From IMG/VR virus record IMGVR_UViG_3300032269_000201, positions 1 through 40,938 of that record: DNA of 40,938 bases; one strand, written 5' to 3'. The notes beneath the pieces were generated by a model. It saw only the letters and a list, made by a program, of their open reading frames with translations, was not told the DNA's origin and ran no database searches. Of the stretch, positions 1,097-37,886 are shown piece after piece. This stretch comes from a virus. Lineage: Duplodnaviria; Caudoviricetes. The stretch's first letter is position 1. Every line of letters starts with the position of its first letter. Position numbers and translations under genes: made by a program.

Positions 1097-1370
1097 GGAC
1101 ATCATCATTGCTGAGTTGCCCAATGTACTTGAACAAGTAAATGAAGCATCACGGCAGGTGTATGACCCAAATAGTATTTGGTTAGATTCTATTCAGTTTG
1201 CTGATTATGTAAGCCAGTTTGCTAAACATTTATTGGAGCATCATGGTCCAGAATGTGTTGAAGATATAGCAATGAACTTAATAAATCTAGCAGAGTCTTT
1301 TAAAATCATGGGCGAGAGTGCCTTAAAAGTTATTGATGAGAGCGAGGCTATGGATGGCACACAGCAGTAA
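1053..1370 (+). CDS. Hypothetical acidic helical protein (start uncertain: 1032 TTG or 1053 ATG)
   Basis: Open frame fills the gap and overlaps the next start. Confidence 0.65.
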   Translation: MEAVLSRLKVPQEVKDIIIAELPNVLEQVNEASRQVYDPNSIWLDSIQFADYVSQFAKHLLEHHGPECVEDIAMNLINLAESFKIMGESALKVIDESEAMDGTQQ

Positions 1371-2088
1371 AGAAACATTATCAATTGGTTGGTGTGACAA
1401 TGGATTAACTGATGGTAAGTTTACCGAAGGTTTGATGTACACCACCATCACAGCACCAAGTCGTGGCATTGGTATCCACAACGCGGTGCGTGTACAGGGT
1501 AATCAGATTGGTCGCCAACGCCAAGCCTTGTTCGACATGTGGGCAGATAGTATTAAGACAGACTGGTTGCTATGGGTTGACTCAGACATCGTGCTAACCC
1601 TTGACATCCTTGAACTACTGTGGAATACAGCAGACAAGATTGCTCGCCCAGTTGTAAGCGGTGTGTATTTTATCTCTAAGCAGATGGAGTCATCGTTGAT
1701 GCAGCCTATGCCTGCTTTGTTTGATGAAGGTACTAATGAGTTTGAGATTAAGTACAAGCACCCACTACCTAAAGACCAAATCATTAAGGTTGATTGTGCT
1801 GGGCTTGGGCTTACGCTGATGCATAAATCAGTGGTACCTGCATTAAGACAGAAGTTTCCAGACCAGTCTATGTTCGCAGAGATTGAGAATGTAGGCGAGA
1901 AGTTTGTAGGTGAGGACATTGTGTTCTTCCGCAAACTAAAGGCAGCAGGTGTGCCAGTACACGCACACACTGGTGCTATTGCTAAACACATGAAGCGATT
2001 TGCTTATGATGAGAATTACTATGCACTGTACTGGCAAGCAGCACAAGCAGCAGCGAATCAGGAGAACAACAATGGACCACAAGGTTAA
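1354..2088 (+). CDS. GT-A fold (GT2-like) glycosyltransferase
   Basis: WLLWVDSD DxD motif, VVSGVY, AGLGLTL, GEDIVFF. Confidence 0.85.
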   Translation: MAHSSKETLSIGWCDNGLTDGKFTEGLMYTTITAPSRGIGIHNAVRVQGNQIGRQRQALFDMWADSIKTDWLLWVDSDIVLTLDILELLWNTADKIARPVVSGVYFISKQMESSLMQPMPALFDEGTNEFEIKYKHPLPKDQIIKVDCAGLGLTLMHKSVVPALRQKFPDQSMFAEIENVGEKFVGEDIVFFRKLKAAGVPVHAHTGAIAKHMKRFAYDENYYALYWQAAQAAANQENNNGPQG

Positions 2089-5393: not shown

Positions 5394-5747
5394 CTAAACG
5401 CCATGCTTAGGTTCTGTCAAACCCCAACCAATCTGTCGGCGTATCTTGTGTCGCATGGGTGGTGTTGTCCCGCCCCACACCCCGTATCTTTCATGGGCTA
5501 ATCCCCACTCAAGGCAAGCCATCATAATCGGGCACTCGCTACACATGCGTTCGAACATGCTTTCCTCCTCGCGGGTGAACAACTCCTGCTGAGGGTAAAA
5601 CACCTCGGTATCTATGCCTTGGCAAGCAGCCTGTGACCAGATGCTAGGTCGGTACTTCAACACAAAACTTATTAGCCCCTTGTTGTAGCGGTTCTTACTA
5701 GAGTTTTCACTGACTATCTTATGAAACTCTGGTCTATTATTTTTCAT
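5394..5747 (-). CDS. whiB: WhiB-family transcriptional regulator
   Basis: W..QAAC...C..CP....CL and GVWGG turn; four conserved Cys. Confidence 0.95.
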   Translation of the reverse strand: MKNNRPEFHKIVSENSSKNRYNKGLISFVLKYRPSIWSQAACQGIDTEVFYPQQELFTREEESMFERMCSECPIMMACLEWGLAHERYGVWGGTTPPMRHKIRRQIGWGLTEPKHGV

Positions 5748-12649: not shown

Positions 12650-12659
12650 GGGGAATAAA

Positions 12660-12869: not shown

Positions 12870-12904
12870 TTTTAAAATCCCTTTAAACAAGATAGGAGGT
12901 GAAC

Positions 12905-14722
12905 ATGGCGCTATCTATTGACGAAATCAAAGATACTTACGACCGTTACCGCCGTATGTATGATGACCGTGACCAGAGAATGAATCAAGTACTTCTGGTT
13001 CGTCAAGGAAAAATGCGTGATGTTTACCCAGATTTATTCCCCGATGGTCCTTTTGAAAATCCTATCGTTGCGAATATGGTGGATATTGCTGCCCGTGATT
13101 TATCAGAAACTATTGCGCCTTTGCCTGCGTTTAACTGTAACTCTACCTCTATGGTATCTGAGGCAGTACGCAGAAAGGCTGACAAGCGTGAAGAAATTGT
13201 TAACGGCATAGTTGACTTCTCTGATTTGCAATCACAGATGTTTGTGGCTGCAGACCGTTATGTTACCTACGGTTTCGTACCTGCTCAGGTTGAGATTGAT
13301 TACGATGCCCAGATGCCACGCATCCGTTTCTTTGATTCACTAGGTTCATACCCAGTAATTGACCGTTTTGGTCGCTGCACAATGTTTTTCCAGCGCATTA
13401 ACAAACCAACTCAGGAACTGATGGCTCAGTATCCAGAGATTGCTCATTTGATTTATGACAAGAATACTCAATCAACTATGTCTGAAATCGTACGCTTTCA
13501 CGATAAAGACCAGGATGTTTTATTCTTACCTCAACGCAGCAATCTAGTTCTTGACCGTGCTACTAACCCAATGGGTGAGTGCATGGTTCGTATTGTACGC
13601 CGACCATCTATTGATGATATGGCGCGAGGACAGTTTGATGATGTATTAGCAATTCAAGTTGCTAAGGCTCGTTACGCACTGCTTTCTTTGGAAGCAGCAA
13701 CCAAATCAGTACAGGCACCGATTGCGATGCCTCAGGATGTACAGGAGTTAGCCCTTGGACCAGATGCAATTATGCGTTCCAGCAAGCCTAACGAAATTCG
13801 CAGAGTCCCGCTTGAACTACCTGCTAACACTTTCCAACAGCAGCATGTTCTTGAAAGCGAATTACGCCTAGGTTCACGCTATCCAGAATCTCGTACTGGT
13901 AATTCAGATGCTTCAATCATTACAGGTCGTGGTGTTCAGGCACTTATGGGTGGTTTTGATACACAAATCAAGACAGCGCACTCAATGTTTGCTCGCACAT
14001 TTACAGAGTTAATGGCTTTAGCACTTAAGACAGATGAAAAAATCTTTGGTAGCAAAGAAAAGACATTAGAAGGTATCTTTAACGGTACCCCGTACAACAT
14101 TAAGTACAAGCCAAGTCGTGATATTGCTGGCGACTACACCGTAGATGTGCAATACGGACTCATGGCAGGGCTAGACCCAAACCGCGCACTGGTATTTGGA
14201 CTGCAGGCTCGTGGAGATAAGTTAATCTCACGCGATTTCCTACGCCGTCAGATGCCTTTTAACTTCAACGCAACTCAAGAAGAAGAAAAAGTTGAAACAG
14301 AAGAACTACGCGATGCCATGAAACAGGCTATTGCCTCTTATGCACAAGCAATTCCAGCACTTGCCTCACAAGGACAAGACCCATCAGACATTTTGATGAA
14401 ACTTTCTACAGTAATCAGCGAACGCCAAAAGGGAACAGCAATTGAAGATGCTATCCAAAAGGCATGGGCACCTAAGAATCCCCCACCCGCTGCTACCCCT
14501 GCAGAAGTAAGTCCTCAAATGGGGCAACCAGGTGCGGTTCCAGCGGGTGCGGGGCAAGAGTCACTACCTCCAGGCTTAACGCCTACGGGTCGTACGCAGG
14601 GAGTCGCTGCAGGGCAGATTGCGCCAGGCGGTAGACCAGATATTCAATCACTATTGGCATCTCTTGGTGCTCGTGGTGAACCTAACCTACAAGCAACTGT
14701 CGCACGGCGACTACCTATTTAA
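12905..14722 (+). CDS. Portal protein (head-tail connector)
   Basis: Position after terminase, about 600 aa, Pro/Gln/Gly-rich C-tail; AGGAGGT RBS. Confidence 0.85.
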   Translation: MALSIDEIKDTYDRYRRMYDDRDQRMNQVLLVRQGKMRDVYPDLFPDGPFENPIVANMVDIAARDLSETIAPLPAFNCNSTSMVSEAVRRKADKREEIVNGIVDFSDLQSQMFVAADRYVTYGFVPAQVEIDYDAQMPRIRFFDSLGSYPVIDRFGRCTMFFQRINKPTQELMAQYPEIAHLIYDKNTQSTMSEIVRFHDKDQDVLFLPQRSNLVLDRATNPMGECMVRIVRRPSIDDMARGQFDDVLAIQVAKARYALLSLEAATKSVQAPIAMPQDVQELALGPDAIMRSSKPNEIRRVPLELPANTFQQQHVLESELRLGSRYPESRTGNSDASIITGRGVQALMGGFDTQIKTAHSMFARTFTELMALALKTDEKIFGSKEKTLEGIFNGTPYNIKYKPSRDIAGDYTVDVQYGLMAGLDPNRALVFGLQARGDKLISRDFLRRQMPFNFNATQEEEKVETEELRDAMKQAIASYAQAIPALASQGQDPSDILMKLSTVISERQKGTAIEDAIQKAWAPKNPPPAATPAEVSPQMGQPGAVPAGAGQESLPPGLTPTGRTQGVAAGQIAPGGRPDIQSLLASLGARGEPNLQATVARRLPI

Positions 14723-21604: not shown

Positions 21605-23061
21605 TGGTTACCCAATATAACTACACCCCGCCTCAGAGCAATGCTGATAAGTTAAAGCAAGCCTACATTGCTCAAGCACAATGGAAAAAGATGCTTGACA
21701 GTGCCAAGGTTGGCTCAGCAGACTACAACAAGGCTCTTAAGCAATACAAAGCCTTAAGCGCATCAATTAAGACTTTACAAGAAGCAATTAATGCTGAAAT
21801 TGGTAAGACCAAAGCAACTGCAGATAAGTCTGCTCGTCAAAAGTTAGTTGATAAATTAACTCGTGCTACAGACTCAGGAACCGCTGCTGAAATTAAAGCA
21901 GCCAAAGATGCTCTTAATAAATTTGATGGTAAAACAACAACAACTACCACAACAGCAACTACAACTAGTGCAACTACCTCAACAGTTGTAGATAAAAACA
22001 AAAATGGTATCCCAGATAATGTTGAATCAGCAGATGCTAAAGCCAAAGCAGATGCTAAAGTTAAAGCAGATGCTGCAAAAGCAGCAGCAGACAAAGCAGC
22101 AGCAGACAAAGCAGCAGCAGAAAAGTTAATTGCTGACAAGGCAGTTGCTGATAAAGAACTTGCTCTTAAGACAATGTATGTAGATTACCTGCGTACAACA
22201 TTTGCTGGACTTGAAGATAAAACCCAGAAGGCTCAGATTGATGGTTTGTTTGACAAAGCATCTAAAGAAGGTTGGACTGCAGAACAATTCCAGATGCAAC
22301 TTGAAGGCACTGATTGGTGGCAACAAACGCTACCTAGCCTACGCTCATGGTATTTAGATACACATGACCCACGCAAGCGGTCAACAACTGTTGAGTTAAT
22401 CCGTAACAAGGTTGCCTCCGTGTCTAGTTACCTAGAACAATTGGGTATCACACCACAAGGCATTGACCCTATTACTGGCAAGGCTTTTGATAAGACTGGC
22501 TATGTCAGCGGTATTGCACAAGAAGCCGTTAAGAATGGTTGGAACGATAACCAACTTAGAGATTACCTTGCTACTCAAGCAGCCATTGTGTTTACTGGCG
22601 GCGGTGAGATTGGTAGTTCACTATCTAAGATTCGTGACACTGCCTACGCATACGGTGTAAACCTTGACCCTACTTATGAAAAAATGATTAACAACTCTTT
22701 GCTTGACTCCAGCGATGGTCGTGATGCACAGTATTACATTGCTGAAATGCGCCGTCAGGCTATTGAAAATCCTAATAACAAAGCATTTTCTGAGGCACTT
22801 AACTCTGGTCGTACGCTGTATGAGGCTACTCGTTCATACCGTGGGCAGATGGCTGGTCTACTTGAGGTAGATGAAAGCAATATTTCTTGGAATGATTTAA
22901 TGAAAAAAGCAATTGATAGCACTACAGGTGCTGCTCGTACATTTGCTGACTTCACTAAAGAAGTTAAGGGCGACCCACTATGGCAGCAGACTCGCAACGC
23001 AAAAGAAACATACAGTTCTAAAGCGCTTGACTTGGCTAAGATGTTTGGATTGGTGGGATAG
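21604..23061 (+). CDS. Putative internal virion protein with poly-Thr and AADKA repeats
   Basis: Coupled ORF with a low-complexity linker at about 21934-22155. Confidence 0.7.
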   Translation: MVTQYNYTPPQSNADKLKQAYIAQAQWKKMLDSAKVGSADYNKALKQYKALSASIKTLQEAINAEIGKTKATADKSARQKLVDKLTRATDSGTAAEIKAAKDALNKFDGKTTTTTTTATTTSATTSTVVDKNKNGIPDNVESADAKAKADAKVKADAAKAAADKAAADKAAAEKLIADKAVADKELALKTMYVDYLRTTFAGLEDKTQKAQIDGLFDKASKEGWTAEQFQMQLEGTDWWQQTLPSLRSWYLDTHDPRKRSTTVELIRNKVASVSSYLEQLGITPQGIDPITGKAFDKTGYVSGIAQEAVKNGWNDNQLRDYLATQAAIVFTGGGEIGSSLSKIRDTAYAYGVNLDPTYEKMINNSLLDSSDGRDAQYYIAEMRRQAIENPNNKAFSEALNSGRTLYEATRSYRGQMAGLLEVDESNISWNDLMKKAIDSTTGAARTFADFTKEVKGDPLWQQTRNAKETYSSKALDLAKMFGLVG

Positions 23062-25172
23062 TGGCAAGATACGATAGAGATACAATTGACGATGGTTCTT
23101 TTATGCCATCACTTGCTGCGCTAGATGTTATTGTTAGCACATCAAAAACTACGCCAATTGTAGATGAACAAACAAAAATTGCAGGGGCAAAGGCTGCTAT
23201 AGCAGCAGCAGAGTCTGTTGGTATTCCTACTAAAGTAACAGTTCCTCAGGCAGCAGTTCCAATTATTAACGAGACTCCAGTAGGCAAAGATTCCGTAACA
23301 ACACCTGTAACTACGGCTGCTGTAACTACTGCCCCCGTTACGACTACACCTGTAACTACAACACCAGTGACAACTACACCTGTAACAACTACTCCTGTTA
23401 CCACTACTCCAGTAACTACAACTCCTGTAACAACAACTCCAGTAACTACTACACCAGTTACCACAACACCTGTTGTTACTAAACCAGACCCAACTAAAAC
23501 TTCTTACGCTGACCTAACTCCAGAACAGCGTGCTGCTATGACTCAAAATGAAAAACTGGATTATATCCAGGCCGCTCGTGATGCAAAATTTGAAGCAGAG
23601 GCTGTCACTCGTGGAGCAGACAACCCAATGTTAAATTATTTTGTTCGCCCTGCTGCTCCTCAAGTTCCAGGAATGATTCAGTATTACTCCTGGATTGGTG
23701 GCAGAACAACTGGTGAATGGAGACTTTATTCTGCATCTGATACACCCGAAAACCAAGAAAAATATGGCGGGCGCGTATTTGCTGGTCAAACACAAGCAAC
23801 TGCACAATCAATAGTTGGTGCTAACTCACTTGTTACACAACCAAAATGGAACCCAGTTACGGGAAAATACGAAGCACCAGGGGCTACTTCATCTACCTCA
23901 AGCACTACCTCATCTACCTCAAGCACTACCTCATCTACTTCAAGCACTACCTCATCTACATCTGCCACCAATAATGATTATACAACTGTCAATGGCGTAC
24001 TCATGTACAAAGGTGGTCGCTTTACTGGTACCTATAATGGTCAAGAATATGTTGATGGTGTTGTTAAACAAGTTATTGCTAATCCTGCTGATTACAGCAC
24101 AGTTAACGGCGTACTTATGTACAAAGGTTCTGCATATACTGGTGATTACCAAGGCAAGAAATATGTTGGCGGTAAAGTTGTTACTTCCGAAGGCACAGGT
24201 TTAAATTACTCTGGAAGCGGAACAACCCTTGACCCGTTTATGGAAGACGGCAAACCATTTACTGGAAGTAAGTTTGGTTCAACCTATGAAAACGGCGTTA
24301 TTGTTGACATGGTTCAAAAGACTGCAGATGATATTGCTAAGCAAGGCAGACTTGATGCCCGTATAGAATTTGGTAATACTCTTAAAGCACTTGGTCTACC
24401 TCAAGATTTAATTGATGAGATAGATACAATGATTAAACAAGATTACACAAATTCTCAGATGTATTTAGAACTACAAAAGACTCAGGCTTGGAAGAATCGC
24501 TTTCCTGGTATGGCTGCTCTTTCTGCTGCTGGTAAAGCAGTAGATGCTGGTACATATATCAGTATGGAAAAAGGTTTTTTGCAAACACTTGATTATTATG
24601 GTTTGGATAAAAATTTATTTGGAACTACTGCTGAACTTGGCAAACAAATTAGCAATTTAGTATCACCTAAACGATTTGAAACTGTAGTTGCTTTGGCTGC
24701 TCAAGATGTTGAACAGAATCCAGATGTCCTTGCTGAACTTAATCTTTATTACGGTGTGGATAAGTCAGCAGCAATTGCTTACCTACTTAACCCAACTATT
24801 GGTCTTGACATTATCCAACGCCAAGCACGGGCTGCAGAAATTGGTGCTAAAGCAGGCAAGTCTAAGTTTGACTTTGGTGTATCAAAAGAAGGCTACGGTG
24901 TTGCTGAATCATTCATTAACGCTGCAGGAACTATGGATTTGCAATCACTTGATGTGGCTTTCCAAGAAGCGCGTGGACTTGCTGATACACAATCTAACAT
25001 TGCTGCTACCGAAGGTGCGGCATATAACGACCTTACTGCAGTGTCGGCAATCTTAGGTAAAAACCAAGCAGCAATTCTTGATAGCCAACGCCGTGCAGCA
25101 CGAAGCGTAGCAAAGTTTAGTGGTGGTTCAGGCTTAGGCACTGGCTCACTTAAGGCAGAAAGCACCATATAA
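23061..25172 (+). CDS. Putative virion protein with PVTTT and SSTSSTT repeats
   Basis: 703-aa ORF, GTG start; helical C-terminal domain. Confidence 0.7.
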   Translation: MARYDRDTIDDGSFMPSLAALDVIVSTSKTTPIVDEQTKIAGAKAAIAAAESVGIPTKVTVPQAAVPIINETPVGKDSVTTPVTTAAVTTAPVTTTPVTTTPVTTTPVTTTPVTTTPVTTTPVTTTPVTTTPVTTTPVVTKPDPTKTSYADLTPEQRAAMTQNEKLDYIQAARDAKFEAEAVTRGADNPMLNYFVRPAAPQVPGMIQYYSWIGGRTTGEWRLYSASDTPENQEKYGGRVFAGQTQATAQSIVGANSLVTQPKWNPVTGKYEAPGATSSTSSTTSSTSSTTSSTSSTTSSTSATNNDYTTVNGVLMYKGGRFTGTYNGQEYVDGVVKQVIANPADYSTVNGVLMYKGSAYTGDYQGKKYVGGKVVTSEGTGLNYSGSGTTLDPFMEDGKPFTGSKFGSTYENGVIVDMVQKTADDIAKQGRLDARIEFGNTLKALGLPQDLIDEIDTMIKQDYTNSQMYLELQKTQAWKNRFPGMAALSAAGKAVDAGTYISMEKGFLQTLDYYGLDKNLFGTTAELGKQISNLVSPKRFETVVALAAQDVEQNPDVLAELNLYYGVDKSAAIAYLLNPTIGLDIIQRQARAAEIGAKAGKSKFDFGVSKEGYGVAESFINAAGTMDLQSLDVAFQEARGLADTQSNIAATEGAAYNDLTAVSAILGKNQAAILDSQRRAARSVAKFSGGSGLGTGSLKAESTI
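23294..23480 (+). repeat. 15-bp coding tandem repeat, (PVTTT)n
   Basis: About 12 synonymously diverged units. Confidence 0.95.
23885..23961 (+). repeat. 21-bp coding tandem repeat, (SSTSSTT)n
   Basis: About 3.5 near-identical units. Confidence 0.9.
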
Positions 25173-25788: not shown

Positions 25789-26961
25789 ATGGCATACACA
25801 GATTCGTCAGCACTCGCTGGCTTAATCAAAACCGCGTATGACCGCTATGTAGAGTTCGCGCTTCGTTCTCAGCCACTGATTCGTTCAGTAGCCGACAAGC
25901 GCCCTGCTCAGCAAGCAATGCCAGGTTCAAGCGTTGTGTTCTCAATCTACAACGACTTGGCTGCGGCAACATCCGCGCTATCATCAGAAACAACTGACCC
26001 AGATGCAGTAGCACTGTCAGATGTTTCAACCGTTTCAGTATCACTTGCTGAATACGGCAACGCTTCACTTGTAACTCGTAAGTTGCAACTGTTCTCACTA
26101 TCAGATGTTGACCCTGCAGTAGCAGACATCATCGCGTTCAACATGGCTGACTCACTTGACAAGATTGCAATGGAAACATTGCGACAGGGTTCAAATGTTA
26201 TCTATGGTGGCTCACGCACATCAACAGCAACAATCACAGCATCTGACACAATCACTGCTGCCAACATCCGTAAGGCTGTTGCGAAGTTGCGTTCAAACAA
26301 GGCTGTACCTCGTGAAGGTTCACTTTACTGGTGCGGTATCCACCCAGAAGTTTCACACGACCTACGCGCTGAAACAGGCGTTGGCGGATGGAACGACATG
26401 CACAAGTACGCCGAGACAGGCACAGGTCAGTTCTGGCCTGGCACAATCGGAACATTTGAAGGTGCCTACTTTGTAGAAACACCTCGTATGTACCGTGGCA
26501 TAGATGGTGCAGATGGTTCAGCATTTGCTACAACTGCAGTAACTGTTGCTGGTACATCAGCAGGTTACACATTTGGTGTGGCTTCAACATCTGTAATCGC
26601 AACTTCTGCAGAAGCAGGAGATAAGATTTCAGGTACAGGTATTGCATCTGGTGCAAAGATTACATCTTTGGTTACATCAGGTTCAACAACCACAATCACT
26701 GTTGATACTGCTAACACAGCAGCAGTGACAGCGACAACCGTTGTAACAGTAACTCCAGTAGTTGCTAACTACCGCACAATTCTTGCTGGAAAGCAAGCAC
26801 TTGCTGAGGCAGTTGCACAGGAGCCAAATGTTATCATCGGACCAGTCGTTGACCGCTTGATGCGTTTCCGCCCTATCGGTTGGTACGGAGTCCTTGGATT
26901 CTCACTATACCGTCAGGCTGCGTTGTACCGCATTGAGACTGGTTCATCAATCCAGTCATAA
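25789..26961 (+). CDS. Major capsid protein (N4-gp56-like, HK97 fold)
   Basis: EYGN, IHPEV..DL, G.IG.FEG..FVET, DRLMRF...GWYG; AGGAGGT RBS; biased codon usage. Confidence 0.92.
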   Translation: MAYTDSSALAGLIKTAYDRYVEFALRSQPLIRSVADKRPAQQAMPGSSVVFSIYNDLAAATSALSSETTDPDAVALSDVSTVSVSLAEYGNASLVTRKLQLFSLSDVDPAVADIIAFNMADSLDKIAMETLRQGSNVIYGGSRTSTATITASDTITAANIRKAVAKLRSNKAVPREGSLYWCGIHPEVSHDLRAETGVGGWNDMHKYAETGTGQFWPGTIGTFEGAYFVETPRMYRGIDGADGSAFATTAVTVAGTSAGYTFGVASTSVIATSAEAGDKISGTGIASGAKITSLVTSGSTTTITVDTANTAAVTATTVVTVTPVVANYRTILAGKQALAEAVAQEPNVIIGPVVDRLMRFRPIGWYGVLGFSLYRQAALYRIETGSSIQS

Positions 26962-27291: not shown

Positions 27292-27560
27292 GCCTACATC
27301 AAAGAACTACACACCCTGAGTTTGTTGAAGGGTGCTTTGGTTGCAAGATTGCTACATTGGAATTAGGTACTGGCGATGCTGGTAGACCTGAATCAATGTC
27401 ACAAAAGAAGTGGAATAAAGAACTTAATCTTTACAAGACTGCGCGTGACCAAGGTATACAGCCAGAAGGTACATCAACAAAACAAATTCAAAAAGCAATA
27501 GATGTTTCCAACAAAGTTGGCAAAGCATTTGATGCAAACACGGGGGGATTTAAGGGATGA
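27288..27560 (+). CDS. Hypothetical protein (H..HP....CFGC)
   Basis: ATGA coupling. Confidence 0.75.
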   Translation: MSLHQRTTHPEFVEGCFGCKIATLELGTGDAGRPESMSQKKWNKELNLYKTARDQGIQPEGTSTKQIQKAIDVSNKVGKAFDANTGGFKG

Positions 27561-28120
27561 CTGCAATCGTAGGTATTCAGGGAAAAGATTGGGCAATGCT
27601 TGCCTCAGATTCCATGACTTCCTATGACGACAGACCTTTCTATGCCAAGGGTATGAACAAAGTTACCGAGCGTGGCGAATATCTATTTGCCGTAGCAGGG
27701 GATGCTTTAGCGGGTGACATAGCAAATTCACTATGGATGCCACCACGAGTATCTAAGACCATGAGCACTAATGATTTTGTAATGACAAAGGTATTGCCAT
27801 CGTTTAAGGCAGCCTGCGTTGCTTACAACTATAACCCCAATAACAAAGAAGATAAAGATGCTGGCTTTGATATGTTGCTTTGTATCAACGCAACCATCTA
27901 TCAAATAGATTCTGGCTTTGGCTGGATGCGAGATGACCGTGGCTTATATGCCATTGGCTCAGGCGGAGAACTTGCCTTGGGAGCCTTGGCTGCACTAGCA
28001 GCAAATGAACAAAGCATAACAAATGCTCAGTCTATAGCCGAGCGTGCTATCCAAATTTCTGCCGAGTACAACATCTATGTCGGTGGAGAATTACAACTTA
28101 AGACACAAAAGGGGAAATAA
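27557..28120 (+). CDS. Ntn-hydrolase, HslV/proteasome-beta-like peptidase
   Basis: N-terminal Thr (MTAIVG...ASDS), K at the nucleophile-activating position, AIGSGG..ALGAL. Confidence 0.85.
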   Translation: MTAIVGIQGKDWAMLASDSMTSYDDRPFYAKGMNKVTERGEYLFAVAGDALAGDIANSLWMPPRVSKTMSTNDFVMTKVLPSFKAACVAYNYNPNNKEDKDAGFDMLLCINATIYQIDSGFGWMRDDRGLYAIGSGGELALGALAALAANEQSITNAQSIAERAIQISAEYNIYVGGELQLKTQKGK

Positions 28121-29887: not shown

Positions 29888-32422
29888 ATGGCAGCAGGAG
29901 ACCCAGGCGTACTAAAGCGGAACTTTTCCGCCGTTGCAATTCAGACAACGCTAGTTAACACAATTTCATCAGCAGCAACTGGCGATACAACAACAAGCGT
30001 TGCCGTAGCATCTGTCAGCGGTTTCCCATCAACAGTTCCTTACACACTTATTCTTGACCCAGATGGCTCAAAAGAAGAAGTTGTAACGGTAACCGCTGCT
30101 ACCTCAACCACTCTTACTATTACCCGTGGACAAGACAATACTCCTGCAGTAGCACATGCTGCTGGTACATCTGTGCGCCATGGTATTTCTGCTCGTGACT
30201 TCAAAGAAGAACAAACTCACATTGCTGCGCGTGGTTATGATGCTGACACCGCTATTCTTTCAAGCGCTGGTATCACACATGTTCACGGACTTGTATCGGG
30301 CGATGGTTCAGTAGTTGGTTCTACCCAGGCTGTAACTCTTACTCGTAAGACATTAGGTACTGGCACATCTATTAGTTCAACTGTTGATAACTCAAGCGGA
30401 ACAATCTCTGGCGGAACAATTACTACTGCCACTGTTACTGCTTCAACAGTTAGAAGTTCAACATTAACTAGCGATACACTTGGCTCTGATTTAGCAGCGG
30501 GTGGATTCCTTGTCACTGGCTTAGGCGCTCCAGTCAATGCCAATGACTCAACACGAAAGGCTTATGTTGACGGAATCCTTGGTTCAGCAACCGCTGCCTC
30601 TACATCTGCCACAAGCGCAGCAACAAGCGCAACAAGTGCAGCAACATCAGCAACTAGCGCAGCAGCAAGTGCCACAGCATCTGCTGCAAGTGCCAGTGCT
30701 GCAGCAACAAGTGCTTCCTCTGCGTTAACATCACAGACTGCTGCTGCTACCAGTGCTACTAGCGCTGCTGCTAGTGCTACGGCTGCTGCTACTAGCGCGA
30801 CCAGCGCTGCAGCCTCTGCTACAACAGCATCTAACTCTGCTGCTACAGCCACAACACAGGCTGGCAACGCTGCGACCTCAGCATCGTCTGCTGCTACAAG
30901 TGCAGCCAGTGCTGCTACATCAGCGACAGCATCTGCAACTTCTGCTGGTGCATCAGCAACATCTGCTACCGCAGCAGCAACCAGCGCAACTAGCGCTGCT
31001 GCTAGTGCAACTGCTTCTGCTGCAAGTGCAACCGCTGCAGCCACATCAGCAACTTCCGCAGCGGCATCGGCAACGACAGCATCAAACTCTGCAGCCACTG
31101 CTACAACTCAGGCTGCTAATGCTGTTACATCTGCAGCCTCTGCTTTAGTAAGTCAAACTGCTGCTGCAACTAGCGCCACAAGTGCTGCTGCTTCTGCAAC
31201 GGCTGCTGCTACAAGTGCTACATCTGCTTCTGCATCGGCTACCGCTGCTGCTACATCAGCAACTAGCGCTGCTGCATCAGCCACTGCTGCTGCGACTTCG
31301 GCTACATCCGCTGCTGCTTCTGCTACTACAGCATCTAACTCTGCAGCCACAGCAACTACTCAGGCTGGTAACGCATCTGCCTCAGCAACTGCAGCAGCAA
31401 CATCTGCTACCAGTGCTGCAGCATCTGCTACTGCAGCAGCAACTTCTGCTACTAGCGCTGCCACTTCTGCATCATCTGCTTTAACAAGTCAGACAGCAGC
31501 AGCCACCTCAGCAACATCGGCTGCCACATCTGCTACATCAGCAGCAACAACTTACACAGCCTATGACCAGCGTTACCTTGGTTCTAAGGCATCAGCACCT
31601 ACAGTTGATAACTTAGGCAATGCTCTTATTGTTGGTGCTACATACTGGAGCACAAGCCTTAACAATATGTATGTGTGGTCAGGTTCTGCTTGGGTGCAAA
31701 TTGCTACTACATCTATTTATACAGCACCTACTCTTGGCAGCACAACACTTGCATCAGGCACAACTTACTCAACAGTAACTGGTCTTACTCTTAGCAGTGG
31801 ATTAGCAACAGCAGACCCAACCGCAGCATTAGGTCTTGCTACTAAGCAATATGTAGATGCTGTTACAGTTGGTACTAATTTCCATGCTCCAGTAGTTGTT
31901 GCAACAAATACAAACATTACTGCTACATATAGTAATGGTACCTCTGGTGTTGGAGCAACACTTACAGTTACAGCAACTGGTGCCTTTGTTATTGACGGTG
32001 TAACAACAGCACTTAACAATCGTATTCTTATCAAAGACCAAACAACACAAACACAAAATGGTATCTATACAGTAACCACTGCAGGTACAACTGGAGTTAG
32101 CGCAGTTCTTACTCGTGCCTTAGATTATGACAATAGCGTTCCTGGTGAAGTTGCCAATGGCGATGTTGTTTTTACAACTGGCGGTACAATCAACACTGGT
32201 AAAACTTTTGTAAATACATCTGTTGGAACAGTTACTATTGGAACTACATCAATTACATTTAGTGCTTATTACACAGGACTTCCTTTACAAACTGGTAATG
32301 CTGGTTTATATTTAACTACTGATGGAACAGCACCTTCATGGGCAGCAATTAATTTAGCAGCCTATGAAACTATTTCTGCTCACAATGATGACCTCATCCT
32401 CGCCCTTATGGGCGCTTACTAG
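29888..32422 (+). CDS. Tail fibre protein with long Ala/Thr/Ser repeat shaft
   Basis: ATSA repeats; ATKQYVD and RILIKDQ...QNGIY...LTRA.D fibre motifs. Confidence 0.85.
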   Translation: MAAGDPGVLKRNFSAVAIQTTLVNTISSAATGDTTTSVAVASVSGFPSTVPYTLILDPDGSKEEVVTVTAATSTTLTITRGQDNTPAVAHAAGTSVRHGISARDFKEEQTHIAARGYDADTAILSSAGITHVHGLVSGDGSVVGSTQAVTLTRKTLGTGTSISSTVDNSSGTISGGTITTATVTASTVRSSTLTSDTLGSDLAAGGFLVTGLGAPVNANDSTRKAYVDGILGSATAASTSATSAATSATSAATSATSAAASATASAASASAAATSASSALTSQTAAATSATSAAASATAAATSATSAAASATTASNSAATATTQAGNAATSASSAATSAASAATSATASATSAGASATSATAAATSATSAAASATASAASATAAATSATSAAASATTASNSAATATTQAANAVTSAASALVSQTAAATSATSAAASATAAATSATSASASATAAATSATSAAASATAAATSATSAAASATTASNSAATATTQAGNASASATAAATSATSAAASATAAATSATSAATSASSALTSQTAAATSATSAATSATSAATTYTAYDQRYLGSKASAPTVDNLGNALIVGATYWSTSLNNMYVWSGSAWVQIATTSIYTAPTLGSTTLASGTTYSTVTGLTLSSGLATADPTAALGLATKQYVDAVTVGTNFHAPVVVATNTNITATYSNGTSGVGATLTVTATGAFVIDGVTTALNNRILIKDQTTQTQNGIYTVTTAGTTGVSAVLTRALDYDNSVPGEVANGDVVFTTGGTINTGKTFVNTSVGTVTIGTTSITFSAYYTGLPLQTGNAGLYLTTDGTAPSWAAINLAAYETISAHNDDLILALMGAY
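30586..31550 (+). repeat. Coding repeat (ATSAAASATAA)n, heptad-like
   Basis: About 320 codons that are almost all Ala/Thr/Ser. Confidence 0.95.
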
Positions 32423-32439
32423 AAAGGCTACAGTAACTA

Positions 32440-32754
32440 ATGGCTGTAAACCAAAAAGCGCTGGCTCGTATAGCAGCAGCAACATCAAGTGCAACCCTAT
32501 ACACAGTACCAAGTACAACGGCAGTGGCGGTAGTAACAAACATTGTTATTGCTAATGCTGCTACCTCAGCATCAACAGCAACTATTGCTATTGATGGAGT
32601 AGTGCTTGTACCAGCAGTATCTATTGCTGCTAACACATTTGCTGGGTTTGACATCAAACAAGTTATCCCTGCCAATGCTACGCCTAAAACAATTACAGGC
32701 TTTGCATCAACAACTGCAGTTACATTTCACATTAGCGGAGTGGAGATAGCGTAA
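32440..32754 (+). CDS. Small tail-fibre-associated beta protein
   Basis: TLYTVP...FHISGVEI motif between fibre genes. Confidence 0.7.
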   Translation: MAVNQKALARIAAATSSATLYTVPSTTAVAVVTNIVIANAATSASTATIAIDGVVLVPAVSIAANTFAGFDIKQVIPANATPKTITGFASTTAVTFHISGVEIA

Positions 32755-33881
32755 TGGGTATCAATACATTTCCAGCATCATCAACAGGAGCAATTTCTTT
32801 TGGTACTACAGCAGGTAGACCTTCAGCACCAGCAATTGGGCAGCCATACTTTAATGGAACTGTAGGTGTTCTTGAAGTTGCTACCACTACTAGTGGTGCA
32901 TTTGTTTCTATTGCATCACAATTAGTACCTGCTCCAACAGTTGCTCCTACAGTTACACAAAGCACATCAGGTACTTCTGCAATACTAACAACCACTGCAA
33001 ATGTTTCATTTAGTGCAGTTTCACCTTCTGGCAATGTTGCTATTATTGACAGTTATGTTGTATCTGCAGCGACAACTGGTGGAACGGTTGTATCTACAGC
33101 AACAACAACTTCACTAAGTTGTACAATTACTGGTTTAACTTCTGGAACACAATACAATTTCACTTATGTAGCAAAATCTGGAAGTTCTAGTTCTGCTGCA
33201 TCACCGATAACATTATTTAGAGCACCAACAGTTACAGTTATTACTAGCAGTTCAACTTACACAATTCCTTATACTGCAACATTTACTTTAATTGCCATTG
33301 GCGGCGGAGGCGGTTCGGGAAGTTCTGGCAATGTTGCCAACGGTGGCGGTTCAGGGCGTTTGACAGCAGCAACTACAAGTTGCACCTCTGGAGATTCAAT
33401 CGTTGTCACCCTTGGCGGTGGCGGTAGTGCTTATGGTGATGCTGGCGGAGCAACTACTATGGTTAGAGGTGGAGTAACACTTGCCTCTGGTGCTGGTGGA
33501 GATGGCGGTCGAGGCTCAGGCACAGGAGCAGGTGGCTCAGGTGGCGGTGGTGGCGGTGACGGCTCAGGTGGTGCGTATCCAGGTCCTGGCGGATACTGGG
33601 GCAGTAACGGTAGTAAAAACGCTGGTGGCGGTTCTGCTGTTGGTGCTGGACAATTAGGCGTAGCCTATGGTTTAGGAACTGACACTAGAATCCCATCTGG
33701 TGGTGCTGGTTCTTATGCTGGCAATAATGGCACAGCATGGGCTGGACTTTATGGCAGCGGTGGCGGGTTAAGTGCTGCTGCAAATGAAAATGGTATTCAA
33801 CGCGGTGGCGGTGGAGGTGGCGCAACTTGGGCGCAACCAGGTAGAACTGGTAACACTGGCATTGCTGCTATTGTGGGTTAA
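32754..33881 (+). CDS. Tail fibre / receptor-binding protein (Fn3-like plus Gly-rich domain)
   Basis: ITGLTSGTQYNF Fn3 signature; GGGGG repeats. Confidence 0.8.
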   Translation: MGINTFPASSTGAISFGTTAGRPSAPAIGQPYFNGTVGVLEVATTTSGAFVSIASQLVPAPTVAPTVTQSTSGTSAILTTTANVSFSAVSPSGNVAIIDSYVVSAATTGGTVVSTATTTSLSCTITGLTSGTQYNFTYVAKSGSSSSAASPITLFRAPTVTVITSSSTYTIPYTATFTLIAIGGGGGSGSSGNVANGGGSGRLTAATTSCTSGDSIVVTLGGGGSAYGDAGGATTMVRGGVTLASGAGGDGGRGSGTGAGGSGGGGGGDGSGGAYPGPGGYWGSNGSKNAGGGSAVGAGQLGVAYGLGTDTRIPSGGAGSYAGNNGTAWAGLYGSGGGLSAAANENGIQRGGGGGGATWAQPGRTGNTGIAAIVG

Positions 33882-33892
33882 AGGAGATAACT

Positions 33893-34237
33893 ATGGAATA
33901 CGCAATCATTAATTCAAACAACATTGTTGAAAACATTATTTATTTTGACGATGAACCAACAGACATAACACCGTTTTTAGATGCACAAAAAACTGCATTT
34001 AATAATCAAGATTTAACTGCTATAAAAATTACACCAGAATATACTGTATATGGAATTGGTAATGTATTTAATGGTGAAAGATTTATGCCAGCACAACCAT
34101 ATCCTTCATGGATTTGGGATGAAACAAAATACTTTTGGGTTGCACCTAAAATACACCCAGAACTTTTGTATGGCAACAATGGCGCAGTTTGGGTATGGGA
34201 TGAGGAGAACTTGGAGTGGATAGCAACAAGACGGTAA
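33893..34237 (+). CDS. Tail-fibre-associated (chaperone-like) protein
   Basis: YA.I..N.V.N...F.P.QPYPSW.WDE...W.AP; follows the Gly-rich fibre. Confidence 0.65.
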   Translation: MEYAIINSNNIVENIIYFDDEPTDITPFLDAQKTAFNNQDLTAIKITPEYTVYGIGNVFNGERFMPAQPYPSWIWDETKYFWVAPKIHPELLYGNNGAVWVWDEENLEWIATRR

Positions 34238-34923
34238 AACCTATTTGGTTTTTTCACATCCCCAAAACTAGCGGTAGGTTTTTCTATGCCAATTCAGTAC
34301 GAGTCCTTGAACAAGAACTTGTAATAAACGGTAAACAATACGGTGACATCCTGCATGGGCACGGGCACTTATCGTTTAAACCATTGGATGGTAAGAACAT
34401 CTTAAGTTTTTCTACATTAAGAGAACCTGTGGCTAGAACAGTAAGTCATTATCAACACATTTACTTCAACACCTTTGATGCAGCAACGGCTGACTTAGAG
34501 GTGGAGAAAAAGAAAATGCTTGATTTCTTATTTGAAAATCCAAACAAAGGAATCATTGACTATCAAACAAAGTTTGTTTCATACAGTGGTGACTCATACA
34601 TGATTCACATAGATGAACATGAACTAAAGGATAGCGTGTCTAACGAGGACTTGCTTTTAGCAAAGCAACGAATCAAGTCTGTTGACTACCTATTCAAGAC
34701 AGAGGAAATGTCACACGAGATAACAAAGAAGTGTTTAAACATTATGCGTGAACACCTTGGCGTTACTGAGAGTGAACCGTACTTTGAAACAACTACGCAC
34801 AACATAAGTAATCCAAACTCTAAGTTGCTGTATGACAACTTAACTCCAAAGGAAAAGGCAATGATTGAAAATCTAATGCCAAATGACATGGAGTTGTATT
34901 ACTCAGCGGAGTGGACAAAATGA
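34216..34923 (+). CDS. PAPS-dependent sulfotransferase (Sulfotransfer_2-like)
   Basis: 5'-PSB FFHIPKTSGR, 3'-PB LREPVARTVSHY, C-terminal D.ELY. Confidence 0.88.
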   Translation: MDSNKTVKPIWFFHIPKTSGRFFYANSVRVLEQELVINGKQYGDILHGHGHLSFKPLDGKNILSFSTLREPVARTVSHYQHIYFNTFDAATADLEVEKKKMLDFLFENPNKGIIDYQTKFVSYSGDSYMIHIDEHELKDSVSNEDLLLAKQRIKSVDYLFKTEEMSHEITKKCLNIMREHLGVTESEPYFETTTHNISNPNSKLLYDNLTPKEKAMIENLMPNDMELYYSAEWTK

Positions 34924-35666
34924 TTATTCAAATCATTGGTCTGCCTGGCAGTGGCAAGACAACACTTGCTACTGCTTTGGCTGACCGCATCAACGCTGTA
35001 CATTTAAACGCTGATTATGTACGGGCAACCATTAACTCTGACTTAGGCTTTACGCCTGAGGATAGAGTTGAACATGCCCGCCGTCTTGGTGAGATGGCTA
35101 AGATGCTATCTAGCCAAGGCTTGGATATTGTTGTTGACTTCATCTGCCCTACCGCTGCTACTCGCGCAGCCTTTGGTAAGCCTGACATCTGTATCTGGAT
35201 GGACACCATTACCGAGGGTCGCTTTGAGGACACTAACAAACTTTGGGAAACACCTACTGAGTTTGATTATCATTTTGTGTCTTACGACAGCAAGGGTCAA
35301 ACAGATTTAATCATTGCTCAGTCTGAACTACATGACTGGAAAGCACCCACTACTTTGTTGCTTGGTCGTTATCAACCATGGCACGAGGGACATCACGCAC
35401 TATTGGAGAAGGCACATGAGCGTACAGCACAGGTTGTTATTGGCGTTAGGGATACTTACGGAACTTCCGAGAAAGACCCTTTGCCTTATCAAGAAGTTGC
35501 TACTCGGATACGAGCCAAAGAACGGTCATCTTTTGTTGTGAAGTTTCCAAACATTACAAACATAGTTTATGGGCGTGATGTTGGATACAAGATTGAACAA
35601 GTAGAACTTTCCCAAGAACTGCAATCTATTTCTGCTACACAGAAAAGAAAAGAGTTGGGACTGTGA
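34920..35666 (+). CDS. cysC: Adenylylsulfate (APS) kinase fused to a HIGH-family nucleotidyltransferase domain
   Basis: GLPGSGKTTLA, LNAD.VR, DLGF..EDR.E..RR; then GRYQPWHEGH and ISAT..R. Confidence 0.85.
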   Translation: MIIQIIGLPGSGKTTLATALADRINAVHLNADYVRATINSDLGFTPEDRVEHARRLGEMAKMLSSQGLDIVVDFICPTAATRAAFGKPDICIWMDTITEGRFEDTNKLWETPTEFDYHFVSYDSKGQTDLIIAQSELHDWKAPTTLLLGRYQPWHEGHHALLEKAHERTAQVVIGVRDTYGTSEKDPLPYQEVATRIRAKERSSFVVKFPNITNIVYGRDVGYKIEQVELSQELQSISATQKRKELGL

Positions 35667-35866
35667 AAGTAACCAAGGCTCGTTCATTTACTAAATCATT
35701 AAGTTATAGAATCTTTGGAACACTAAGTTCCTTTGCTGTTGCCTATGCTATTACTGGTAAGGGAAGCCTGTCTGCATTTATTGCTATGTGGGAAACAGTA
35801 GTCAAGGTTGGTATCTACTACTGGCATGAAAGAATCTGGAACAAAGTTAAATGGGGCAGAAAATAA
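35663..35866 (+). CDS. DUF2061-like small membrane protein
   Basis: RS..K..SYR..GT...YY.HERIW..V.WG. Confidence 0.8.
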   Translation: MKVTKARSFTKSLSYRIFGTLSSFAVAYAITGKGSLSAFIAMWETVVKVGIYYWHERIWNKVKWGRK

Positions 35867-35879
35867 CTAAGGAGTAGGC

Positions 35880-37886
35880 ATGGTATCAAGAGCACCTGAC
35901 ATTACAGAGCGCACGATAATTGATTTATCGGGGCGCTTGTCTACTTATTATGACTTAAATGCTAACGCCTTTGATGTGGCTATTGCTGGTCTGCCATTCA
36001 TTATGGCTGTCACAGACAACACACCATACAAGCGACAGACTGCAGAGTTTCGTGCTCAGCGCGTAGACCAGATGCGTGACCCAGGTGAGCACACTTTGGC
36101 TGGCTCAGGTTACTGGACTCGTTCACAATCTTCTTGGCACTACGGTGAAGGTATTAACTTTACTGAACCTATGGAAGGTAACGACAACGAAGTTCGCTTT
36201 CGTTTTAAAGATTCCTATGGCATAGATGTCTGGACACCAGGACAACTTAACCTACTTAAAAAGACCACACTTGTTCAAGCATTTTCTGGCAAAGTTACAC
36301 TTGCCTCAGGTAATGATTCAGTAACAAATAAAATCTTTGCAGTTAACGAAGCACCTTATACCGCAGCAGGCACAGCAATCTATAAGATAACAACTGCTGG
36401 TACATCCACCGCATTTGCTACTTATGCTGACCTTGGCAGTAAAACAATTCTTTCACAAACTTCTGATGGTCAGACTCTTTATGTGTCTAATGATACAACG
36501 GTTTATGACATTGACATGACAAGCGGTGCAGTACATGCTGCCTATACATGGAGCAAGACACCATCATCTGTTAAATTAAAATATGTTAAGTCTCGCGTGA
36601 TTGCAGCAGTTACATACACAGATGGATTATCTGCAGCCTATGACCTTACCTTTCCAAACAAAGGTAGCGGTGCTGCCATTCTTACTTCCACTCTTACTGC
36701 TATCAATGGTTCAACTACCCTTGCAAAGAACTGGGTATGGACTGGTATCACAGAAGCAATCACATCTATCTACATTGGTGGCAACGCTGGTGAACACTCT
36801 GCATTATTTAAACTACAGGTAGATAATACTGGTGCACTTGGCACCCTTGTAACTGTAGCCAACTTACCACGAGGCGAAGTTATTACATCTTTGTATGGAT
36901 ACCTTGGCACATACATCATGCTTGGCACTAGCAAAGGCGCTCGCATTGCAACATCAGATACCAACGGTGACTTAACTTATGGTCCACTTGTTTACCACGA
37001 TGAAGATGGTGTCTATGATTTTGAAGCACGCGATTCTTATGTGTGGGCTGGCAACACTGGCGGAGTAAATGGAAACTCAGGAACAACCCGCATTAACTTA
37101 GCCCAACCTATTACCCTTATCGGATATGCCCAACCTATCTCAACAGGTGTATATGCCCGTGCTACAGATGTATATGCCGATGCTATAAGTGGGCGCGTAC
37201 AATCTATTCGTATCTTTGATTCACCAAGCCGTGTTGTTTTCTCTATCAATGGCTCAGGTGTATGGATGGAACATGCCACTGACCTAGTTGAGTCAGGTGT
37301 AATCCGCGGCGGTAAGATTCGTTACGACACCATGGAGAATAAAGCATGGAAGCGCGTGCGCGTTCGTACTGTAAACGATGAAGCCAATGGCGACATTGAA
37401 ATCTACAAAATGAATTACAACTCTGATGAAATTATTACTACAATTTTTGAGGGCAACAGCACGGCTGCGGATATAGATTTACAAAACTCTTACCCAGGTA
37501 TTAACCCAGATGCTGCATTTAAATTAGAGTTATACCGCAACTCAACTGATGCAACCACTGGTCCAGTAGTAGTGGGCTTAGCAGTTAAGGCTTTGCCTTC
37601 ACCTACCCGTGCTCGTGTTCTACAGATACCTGTCTTTATGTTTGATAAAGAAACAGATAAGACTGGAAACATTATTGGCTACGAAGGCTACGCTCGTGAG
37701 CGTTTGTTTGCGCTTGAAACAGTTGAAAGTATTGGTGCAACAATCATTGTTCAGGACTTTACCGCTGGTGGAGAACCTGTTGAGTGTGTGATTGAACAAA
37801 TTACATTCACTCGTGCTACACCATCTGCTCGTAACTACTCAGGCTTTGGCGGCATCTGCCAAATCATCGCTCGCACTGTCGTATAA
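35880..37886 (+). CDS. Putative tail nozzle (tubular protein B-like, beta-propeller)
   Basis: 668 aa, beta-rich; last structural gene before lysis. Confidence 0.65.
   Translation: MVSRAPDITERTIIDLSGRLSTYYDLNANAFDVAIAGLPFIMAVTDNTPYKRQTAEFRAQRVDQMRDPGEHTLAGSGYWTRSQSSWHYGEGINFTEPMEGNDNEVRFRFKDSYGIDVWTPGQLNLLKKTTLVQAFSGKVTLASGNDSVTNKIFAVNEAPYTAAGTAIYKITTAGTSTAFATYADLGSKTILSQTSDGQTLYVSNDTTVYDIDMTSGAVHAAYTWSKTPSSVKLKYVKSRVIAAVTYTDGLSAAYDLTFPNKGSGAAILTSTLTAINGSTTLAKNWVWTGITEAITSIYIGGNAGEHSALFKLQVDNTGALGTLVTVANLPRGEVITSLYGYLGTYIMLGTSKGARIATSDTNGDLTYGPLVYHDEDGVYDFEARDSYVWAGNTGGVNGNSGTTRINLAQPITLIGYAQPISTGVYARATDVYADAISGRVQSIRIFDSPSRVVFSINGSGVWMEHATDLVESGVIRGGKIRYDTMENKAWKRVRVRTVNDEANGDIEIYKMNYNSDEIITTIFEGNSTAADIDLQNSYPGINPDAAFKLELYRNSTDATTGPVVVGLAVKALPSPTRARVLQIPVFMFDKETDKTGNIIGYEGYARERLFALETVESIGATIIVQDFTAGGEPVECVIEQITFTRATPSARNYSGFGGICQIIARTVV

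Follow-up and report, generated by a model that had tools for sequence, protein, structure and literature searches.

The virus record IMGVR_UViG_3300032269_000201 raises the question of why a tailed phage should carry, among its tail genes, a fusion of an adenosine 5′-phosphosulfate (APS) kinase with a small nucleotidyltransferase domain of the HIGH superfamily. The window analysed here is the whole record, 40,938 nucleotides long (40.9 kb), with direct terminal repeats and rated 100% complete by CheckV. The fusion (248 amino acids [aa], ATG start; 34920..35666, + strand; PF01583 plus CTP_transf_like) lies between a gene for a sulfotransferase-family protein (235 aa, GTG start with GAGGAG upstream; 34216..34923, +; PF03567) and one for a DUF2061 protein (67 aa, GTG start; 35663..35866, +; PF09834). 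Neighbouring genes in this trio overlap by 4 bases each, and the sulfotransferase open reading frame (ORF) overlaps the preceding 114-aa gene by 22 bases. An earlier reading of the sequence (the original prediction) had placed three overlapping genes in the tail module, which the ORFs, the family matches and the fibre-like genes upstream bear out, and had proposed that the fusion may be a minimal synthase of 3′-phosphoadenosine 5′-phosphosulfate (PAPS) serving the sulfotransferase. We find that the gene set is real, widespread and ordinarily annotated. Judged from gene context, the small domain of the fusion most likely represents an ATP sulfurylase of an undescribed type outside the Sat family.

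A common phage fusion with a trimmed kinase

The fusion is widespread among phages. We counted 6045 homologues among 7066 candidates, estimate that it occurs in ~1900 IMG/VR stretches, and found 19 GenBank phage records with a match, 12 of which align to 80% or more of its length. Because phrog_10255 ('kinase') matches it over its full length (E 4e-64) and its homologues run to thousands, the fusion is not a chance ORF. Against Pfam it resolves into APS_kinase (residues 2–84, E 8.6e-17) and CTP_transf_like (residues 147–198, E 1.2e-5).

The N-terminal half (residues 1–138; 34920..35333, +) scores 62 against a Pfam cut-off of 21.1 for PF01583, and its model (predicted local distance difference test [pLDDT] 84.6) is closest in fold to Mycobacterium tuberculosis CysC (4rfv; VIA Z 17.3, root-mean-square deviation [rmsd] 1.8, 126 aligned). 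The top five VIA rows are all APS kinases (Z 15.6–17.3), followed by gluconate kinase (14.3); the top Foldseek rows are APS kinases throughout. Residues 2–82 can be aligned with APS kinases of solved structure (E 6e-13), and both the P-loop and the APS-site motifs are found. D32, R35, F44, R49, F74 and P77, which we take to be residues of these motifs, are invariant across 42 homologues. Together, the model and the alignments suggest a trimmed variant that would act as an APS kinase.

The C-terminal domain belongs to neither Sat nor NadM

We refer to the C-terminal half (110 aa, residues 139–248; 35334..35666, +) as the mini-HIGH domain. It is one third of the length of Sat, in agreement with the original prediction that it is far shorter than true ATP sulfurylases. 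Folded alone (AlphaFold pLDDT 91.6), it is closest to the nicotinamide mononucleotide (NMN) adenylyltransferase (NMNAT) 1f9a (Z 10.1, rmsd 2.7, 102 aligned), followed by phosphopantetheine adenylyltransferase (PPAT; Z 9.8), NadM (9.4) and Sat (1v47; 8.0, rmsd 2.9, 106 aligned), with rows within 1 Z treated as tied. The fold search that had been proposed for this domain thus returned the HIGH fold, but with three other nucleotidyltransferases above Sat. In a profile search of the PDB, NadM and archaeal NMNAT were best (E 4.5e-11). In the Pfam search, PF01747, the Sat family, gave no match at E 0.05.

Four motifs are described for Sat (PMC6607087): QXRN, which anchors sulfate, HXXH, a VGRDHAG loop and PFR. 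The mini-HIGH domain has HXXH as H155-E-G-H158 (H in 143/144 and 144/145 sequences). Its GRD-like loop, YGRDVG at residues 217–222, has D, G or K at the third position and is aligned by MAFFT off the VGRDHAG loop of Sat; it is near-invariant (G85 150/150 and R86 149/150 in the mini-HIGH alignment), as is HxGH. The domain ends in an IS[AG]T..R motif. It also displays the GRFQPxHxGH motif and HIGH fold of NadM and archaeal NMNAT. The central helix block of NadM, whose conserved Trp we take to have a nicotinamide-binding role, is deleted relative to three phage NadM proteins (L253–L255), and the NCBIfam NMNAT scores of the fusion are far under their cut-offs (PRK01153, 27.4 vs 127; TIGR01527, 22.2 vs 181.2). 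In a tree of 46 rows, the 43 mini-HIGH rows split from the three phage NadM proteins with 100/100 support, on long branches.

The mini-HIGH domain therefore belongs to neither the Sat nor the NadM family; sequence and model together suggest that it is derived from NadM/NMNAT without the helix block between strands. Its reading as a shortened Sat did not hold, since its sequence and fold lie nearest to NadM/NMNAT and QXRN and PFR are missing. The original prediction had also pointed to the order of animal PAPS synthase, and PAPSS1 does have the kinase first, as in the phage fusion; because the HIGH domain is not of Sat type and both domain orders occur, this likeness is convergent. The family comprises 1190 clusters at 50% identity (E up to 1e-10, some being distant NMNATs). 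In the ESM atlas its clusters carry generic cytidyltransferase-like names, and the 114-aa protein encoded upstream of the sulfotransferase falls in unnamed viral clusters.

Sulfur genes are the recurring partners in cells

The cellular loci that carry the context evidence encode mini-HIGH domains 52% (L110), 49% (L112) and 47% (L117) identical to that of the window. A scan for fusion partners covered 48 of 150 listed mini-HIGH representatives, picked for extra length. In it, the domain is joined to a full-length APS kinase in both orders, standing before it in P0127 and P0241 and after it in P0193, P0228, P0239, P0253 and P0270, and is also joined to trimmed kinases. The kinase at L113 passes the TIGR00455 cut-off. 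Fusions to chorismate synthase, UCH, DHQS and sigma-70 (P0132, P0147, P0165, P0176) were single, chimeric-looking cases and were set aside.

A further setting is sulfate assimilation, which we followed in a marine alphaproteobacterial order (that of genome G002; 11 incomplete genomes). Ten of the 11 genomes have a mini-HIGH gene, and nine of these ten loci read cysG-cysI-cysH-DUF2061-kinase-HIGH, the tenth stopping at the kinase at a contig end. CysI, CysH and CysG of these operons pass their NCBIfam cut-offs. CysD exceeded its cut-off in none of the 11 genomes, four weak matches including at least two that are CysH itself, and Sat was found in one genome, on a separate island beside pyruvate kinase.

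The domain also accompanies sulfite oxidation. The cytoplasmic sulfite-oxidation set consists of aprAB, aprM and sat (PMC8269255). In SAR11, aprAB is core and the pathways are incomplete (PMC12636525): strain HTCC1062 is without sat and cysDNCHIJ, and of seven strains, five are listed with cysC and these five also with aprA (PMC5069961); sat is present in one of seven (PMC3448164). Among 251 genomes of the SAR11 family (Pelagibacteraceae, the family of G003), we found mini-HIGH in 159, aprA in 141 and Sat in 10. Mini-HIGH and aprA occur together in 133 genomes, mini-HIGH only in 26, aprA only in 8 and neither in 84 (odds ratio 54, p 2e-33, uncorrected and inflated by kinship and genome incompleteness; 132/26/8/84 when the unpublished genome G199, on which none of our claims rests, is left out). 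Positions were compared in 82 of the 133: in 43, mini-HIGH lies 1410–1480 bases before aprA on the same strand, in 10 the two are within 4 kb, and in 29 they are unlinked.

Twenty SAR11-family regions were fetched. Four (L226–L229; genomes G236, G092, G065 and G218) have a lone mini-HIGH gene, with no kinase, before a membrane gene, aprB and aprA; one has a fusion at the apr locus, one is missing the apr block, and in 14 the domain is paired with a kinase elsewhere or lies apart. The lone gene and aprM-aprB-aprA are flanked by TauE/SafE-family genes. The membrane gene has no family match, and we call it aprM from its position and from PMC2211403. In five aprMBA-linked genomes, a kinase search without a positive control found 0/5, and a Pfam search found one over the cut-off. 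The lone mini-HIGH gene before aprM-aprB-aprA is a candidate for the missing sat of SAR11.

Several of these surroundings have features of their own. The low-GC order of G002 (L110, L112, L136–L143) may assimilate sulfate through an operon that runs cbiX-cysG-cysI-cysH-DUF2061-kinase-HIGH and is without CysD. At L215, L216 and L223 (~5000–14000), from further SAR11-family genomes, the kinase-HIGH pair sits among sub-cut-off DmdA-, DddP- and methanethiol oxidase-like genes, with a sulphur transport family gene and egtB/egtD in the same surroundings. A HIT-family gene follows the apr locus at L228 (4642–5037); HIT proteins are a possible other route of APS disposal. Pyruvate kinase adjoins mini-HIGH at L101, L120 and L232 and adjoins Sat at 3 of 10 SAR11-family loci; beside Sat (L144, L208–L210) or mini-HIGH in marine surface-polysaccharide islands, it may regenerate ATP for PAPS synthesis. 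Some cellular 'genome' matches (L085–L089, L100, L105–L109, L119) have phage-type neighbours and are seemingly phage contigs binned into metagenome-assembled genomes (MAGs).

The fusion and sulfotransferases occur together in related phages

Relatives of the window share the 668-aa gene that follows the trio (35880..37886, +; phrog_11667, of unassigned function in PHROG), which served as an anchor for finding them. We obtained 26 complete fibre-to-anchor intervals, forming 18 groups; they comprise 21 of 26 loci found through the anchor, one of them a copy of the window's region, and L001–L005, found through the fusion. A sulfotransferase is present in 5/5 interval groups with the fusion and in 0/13 without it (p 1.2e-4), a contrast weakened because those positives had helped to train the profiles, which are anchored by Pfam and PDB matches. 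The sulfotransferases of the five fusion-bearing groups come from three different families. Three profiles found no sulfotransferase anywhere in the 13 fusion-free records (8 near complete). Conversely, of 10 records that have the fusion but no sulfotransferase close to it, 7 have one elsewhere, including 3/3 complete ones, although these records belong to larger phages and the whole-record comparison is correspondingly looser. The gene-neighbourhood survey suggested by the original prediction thus yielded sulfur-gene partners in cells and sulfotransferase coupling among phage relatives.

The window's sulfotransferase matches Sulfotransfer_2 (PF03567) at E 1.2e-4, with 22.7 bits against a cut-off of 22; an 81% identical copy at L203 misses Pfam at E 0.01. 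It has a PAPS-binding-type loop at residues 14–20 with K17, which we take to be the 5′-phosphosulfate-binding loop, and R69 and S77, which presumably delimit the 3′-phosphate-binding segment; R69, P71 and S77 are invariant among 17 sequences. As a single sequence it gave no meaningful match in the PDB, and its family profile matches HS6ST3 (E 1.4e-7). By sequence, the family appears nearest to carbohydrate (heparan 6-O) sulfotransferases.

Upstream lie the 114-aa fibre-partner protein (33893..34237, +; phrog_7759, E 1e-11), a fibre-like protein with fn3 and glycine-rich domains (375 aa; 32754..33881, +; PF00041 and PF21722, Gly_rich_2) and the main tail fibre (844 aa; 29888..32422, +; phrog_38058, E 2.5e-138). 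The 375-aa protein is 27% Ser+Thr and the 844-aa fibre 35%; the former is a candidate acceptor and the latter a second candidate. The block comprising the 375-aa fibre, partner and sulfotransferase (32797–34919) shares 74.5% DNA identity with L202 and L203 and ends there where the sulfotransferase ends, with no fusion adjacent; both records still encode the fusion, ~6–7 kb off. Among 80 viral fusion loci, 13 carry the partner domain and all 13 also hold a sulfotransferase; the domain is fused to the sulfotransferase in 7/80 and adjacent in 5 more, one on the opposite strand. At L001 and L203 the phrog_7759 domain forms the N-terminus of the sulfotransferase (residues 1–73 and 1–90).

DUF2061 (PF09834, E 3.2e-17; 63.1 vs a cut-off of 23.1) is the constant companion of the fusion. 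The family is present in 69/80 viral fusion loci and in cys operons, and is fused to mini-HIGH in P0252; we propose that it may be an accessory of sulfate activation. Its hydropathy is weak for a membrane protein (best 19-residue value 1.1). The sulfotransferase, in turn, swaps among three families while kinase-HIGH and DUF2061 stay. Since the shared block ends at the sulfotransferase and DUF2061 goes with the fusion, these are two modules: the sulfotransferase belongs with the fibre block, and kinase-HIGH plus DUF2061 is a separate, exchangeable donor module. The three genes do adjoin, as the original prediction noted, but they are not the self-contained cassette that it described, the sulfotransferase moving with the fibre and its 114-aa partner.

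Where DUF2061 does not follow the fusion (L013, L017, L034, L043, L056, L073, L075), a 99-aa gene and/or DUF6356 stands instead. By eye, the C-terminal part of the kinase of phage RSL1 resembles this 99-aa gene; that kinase, which lacks mini-HIGH, is encoded at the head of a cluster that also contains glycosyltransferase, nucleotidyltransferase and sulfotransferase genes (L083:5989-12226). A DUF6065 gene (phrog_7084) recurs between fibre and anchor, with or without sulfation genes (L002–L004:4292-4999; L180, L184, L185). Partial mini-HIGH matches in RSL1, RsoM2USA and DLP_6 are NadM-Nudix proteins and were not counted. In phage Sano, a candidate sulfotransferase gene lies at L081:4957-5996, and a NADAR gene also precedes the fusion, in a non-tail region.

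A proposed route to sulfation and its alternatives

We propose that the mini-HIGH domain would adenylylate sulfate (ATP + sulfate → APS + pyrophosphate) and that the trimmed kinase, whose fold and motifs are those of APS kinases, would phosphorylate the 3′-OH of APS to give PAPS. Sulfate adenylylation is thermodynamically unfavourable, and the APS kinase together with host pyrophosphatase may pull this step; DUF2061 may assist sulfate activation. The sulfotransferase, assigned by family, would then pass the sulfo group to a hydroxyl. PAPS is cytoplasmic, so sulfation would happen inside the infected cell. In the weakest step, the acceptor would be the adjacent fn3/glycine-rich fibre or a glycan attached to that fibre; the modification would take place in the cytoplasm while the phage assembles, and the 114-aa partner domain may bring sulfotransferase and fibre together. 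The acceptor is our least certain assignment: Ser/Thr-rich fibres, a glycan placed by the glycosyltransferase encoded in the core genome, or a host envelope precursor could each serve.

From its gene context, the mini-HIGH domain is probably a non-Sat ATP sulfurylase. That the fusion feeds the sulfotransferase is also probable, with somewhat less assurance, and, granted this, the fibre is a reasonably likely acceptor. The whole chain, in which the fusion is a self-sufficient PAPS synthase and its neighbour sulfates the phage's own fibre, is plausible from sequence and models but falls just short of probable. In its central point the original prediction is supported: a minimal PAPS synthase for the sulfotransferase is the most likely function, in keeping with the cys and apr contexts, the fusions and the sulfotransferase coupling.

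Several findings weigh against this reading. NMNAT, PPAT and NadM rank above Sat by fold, no Sat appears among the 43 PDB profile matches of the mini-HIGH domain, the QXRN site reads G-R-[YFW]-Q (G, R and Q each 143/144), and PFR is absent. Most of the kinase lid is gone, with two ~11-residue gaps relative to five canonical APS kinases, and the kinase half scores 63.7 against the TIGR00455 cut-off of 138.7. The sulfotransferase clears its Pfam cut-off only marginally. Within ~5 kb, 51/80 viral fusion loci have no sulfotransferase (29/80, or 26/69 groups, have one). Sano has the fusion and a sub-threshold Sulfotransfer_4 match (E 4e-4), with none by the three profiles; in RSL1 a sulfotransferase accompanies a kinase that lacks mini-HIGH; and in RsoM2USA the kinase is present, with neither mini-HIGH nor sulfotransferase found. 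Some relatives in which no sulfotransferase occurs likewise have the partner domain behind a fibre. The cellular genomes, which are MAGs and single-amplified genomes, are incomplete, and each lineage represents one evolutionary event. Twenty-six SAR11-family genomes have mini-HIGH without aprA, one showing the same locus with aprMBA missing (L230). Nine of the ten Sat-bearing genomes of that family also hold mini-HIGH, and G010 likewise holds both; mutual exclusion of the two was thus not seen.

The same PAPS supply could instead serve a sulfotransferase whose acceptor is a small molecule, or a glycan or glycolipid precursor of the host envelope, so that the receptor of this fibre is masked and superinfection excluded. 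We consider this unlikely but a serious contender: carbohydrate sulfotransferases are the nearest relatives of the sulfotransferase family, an enzyme that masks the receptor of one fibre type would equally be inherited with that fibre, surface-polysaccharide loci (L092, L093, L120) contain cellular homologues of the fusion, and in larger phages the fusion is found outside the tail genes, in the company of oxygenases and glycosyltransferases. A role at assembly is the better fit to the fusion of the sulfotransferase with the fibre-partner domain and to co-transcription with the late tail genes, the + strand showing no promoter-like site; both suit assembly over early exclusion. The mini-HIGH domain might also be another nucleotidyltransferase, acting on NMN, phosphopantetheine or a small phosphate or phosphonate, with the kinase using host APS or the pair making some other 3′-phosphoadenosyl product. 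Its nearest relatives in sequence and fold (NadM/NMNAT and PPAT), the absent QXRN, the cytidyltransferase-like names of its atlas clusters and the existence of kinase-only phages speak for this; the deleted inter-strand block of NadM, the low NCBIfam NMNAT score (27.4 vs 127), the possession by mini-HIGH carriers of their own NadD (3/5) and CoaD (3/5; G065 has both) and the recurrence of sulfur genes as partners in three unrelated settings make it distinctly unlikely.

Phage cysC is read as an assimilatory auxiliary metabolic gene in the main texts of PMC10914622 and PMC9529941, and homologues of the fusion do serve in cysGIH operons. For this phage we regard a boost to host sulfate assimilation as improbable: no cysH was found in the complete genome, the fusion sits in the tail module, and its relatives are strictly coupled to a sulfotransferase. 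The original prediction that cysC may not be a sulfur-assimilation gene here is supported by that coupling and by the lack of cysH. Slightly more improbable still is a non-catalytic sulfotransferase-fold protein, for example a fibre-binding or assembly factor, with the fusion a passenger in a recombination hotspot. The marginal Pfam score, the degenerate loop in some partner-fused forms and the recurrence of the fibre-sulfotransferase block without an adjacent fusion would fit it, but in each of the two records where the block is detached, the fusion is still present within ~7 kb, three sulfotransferase families alternate beside the fusion, and K17, R69 and S77 are kept.

Relation to known systems

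Like PAPSS1 (1x6v) and the Aquifex Sat/APS kinase (2gks), the phage protein joins an APS-kinase fold (Z 16.0 and 16.4) to a HIGH-superfamily domain, with PAPS as the predicted product. Unlike those bifunctional synthases, it is 248 aa long rather than ~550–630, its second domain is not of Sat type (Z 5.7 and 6.0), its kinase lid is missing, and its family includes both orders and split forms. With Sat (PF01747; Thermus thermophilus 1v47) the mini-HIGH domain shares the HIGH fold, HXXH, the final IS[AG]T..R motif and the same genomic places, and its GRD-like loop may correspond to that of Sat; it differs in being without QXRN, PFR and a PF01747 match and in having 110 aa rather than ~350 or more. 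NadM and archaeal NMNAT (1f9a, 1ej2, 2qjt) are its best match in sequence and fold and share the N-terminal GRxQPxHxGH and NP motifs, but the mini-HIGH domain has ~30–50 middle residues deleted, no Nudix domain, a separate branch and a sulfur-gene context.

The rhizobial nodPQ-nodH and Xanthomonas raxPQ-raxST systems combine a dedicated PAPS supply, via CysD/CysN-CysC, with a sulfotransferase, and mycobacteriophage virions are glycosylated by phage-encoded glycosyltransferases. The proposed phage system has in common with these the logic of providing a tailoring enzyme with a donor supply of its own, and phage-encoded decoration of the virion. Published phage cysC genes, short APS kinases of freshwater and marine phages, very likely overlap this family; in their main texts, 'sulfurylase' occurs 0 times in PMC10914622 and PMC9529941, and 'sulfotransferase' and 'DUF2061' occur 0 times in PMC10914622. 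In the open-access literature searched, we found no account of the mini-HIGH domain as a sulfurylase and no description of sulfated phage virions.

A broader proposal is that the mini-HIGH domain is a third, NMNAT-derived and bidirectional class of ATP sulfurylase. It would complete the smallest PAPS synthase, carried by thousands of phages to sulfate the fibres of their own virions, and would supply the missing sat of SAR11, where it would finish AprBA sulfite oxidation and take ATP from APS. We advance this tentatively, as possible rather than probable. If true, it would fill the stated SAR11 gap, aprBA and cysC without sat or cysDN (PMC5069961, PMC3448164, PMC12636525), with ATP recovered from APS in the most abundant marine bacteria, and would complete the assimilatory operon in the marine alphaproteobacterial order. 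Many phage cysC 'sulfur-cycling' genes would be donor supply for sulfation, and sulfated virions would be a phage modification. Should the domain be a sulfurylase, annotation pipelines overlook a whole enzyme class. The significance comes chiefly from the enzyme class and the gap in SAR11, and less from this single locus.

Genome setting and other observations

Family searches show that the window encodes a terminase, portal, capsid, tail fibre and CHAP endolysin, with a weak SU10-like adaptor match (E 1e-4). A WhiB-family regulator gene (5394..5747, −; PF02467, E 4.5e-15) suggests a host that is likely actinobacterial. The 668-aa anchor gene had been labelled the nozzle, a label we could not confirm: phrog_11667 has no assigned function, and the protein has no Pfam match and, with a 10-sequence profile, no PDB match. 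A promoter and terminator scan of 32300–36200 gave 5 and 2 sites where 7.2 and 2.9 would be expected, and nothing usable.

A glycosyltransferase-like gene (1333..2088, +; phrog_34859, E 6e-124) lies distant from the sulfation genes and is a possible source of a glycan acceptor. A tie between this gene and sulfation was ruled out, as it is present in 5/5 searched relatives without sulfation genes. Other hydroxyl-rich stretches occur in a 703-aa protein containing successive TTTPV-type repeats (23061–25172), another candidate for modification, and in the major capsid protein (25789–26961), which has an insertion-like, Thr/Ser-rich stretch of ~80 residues near its C-terminus. An HslV-like peptidase gene (27557–28120; phrog_1040) lies inside the structural module.

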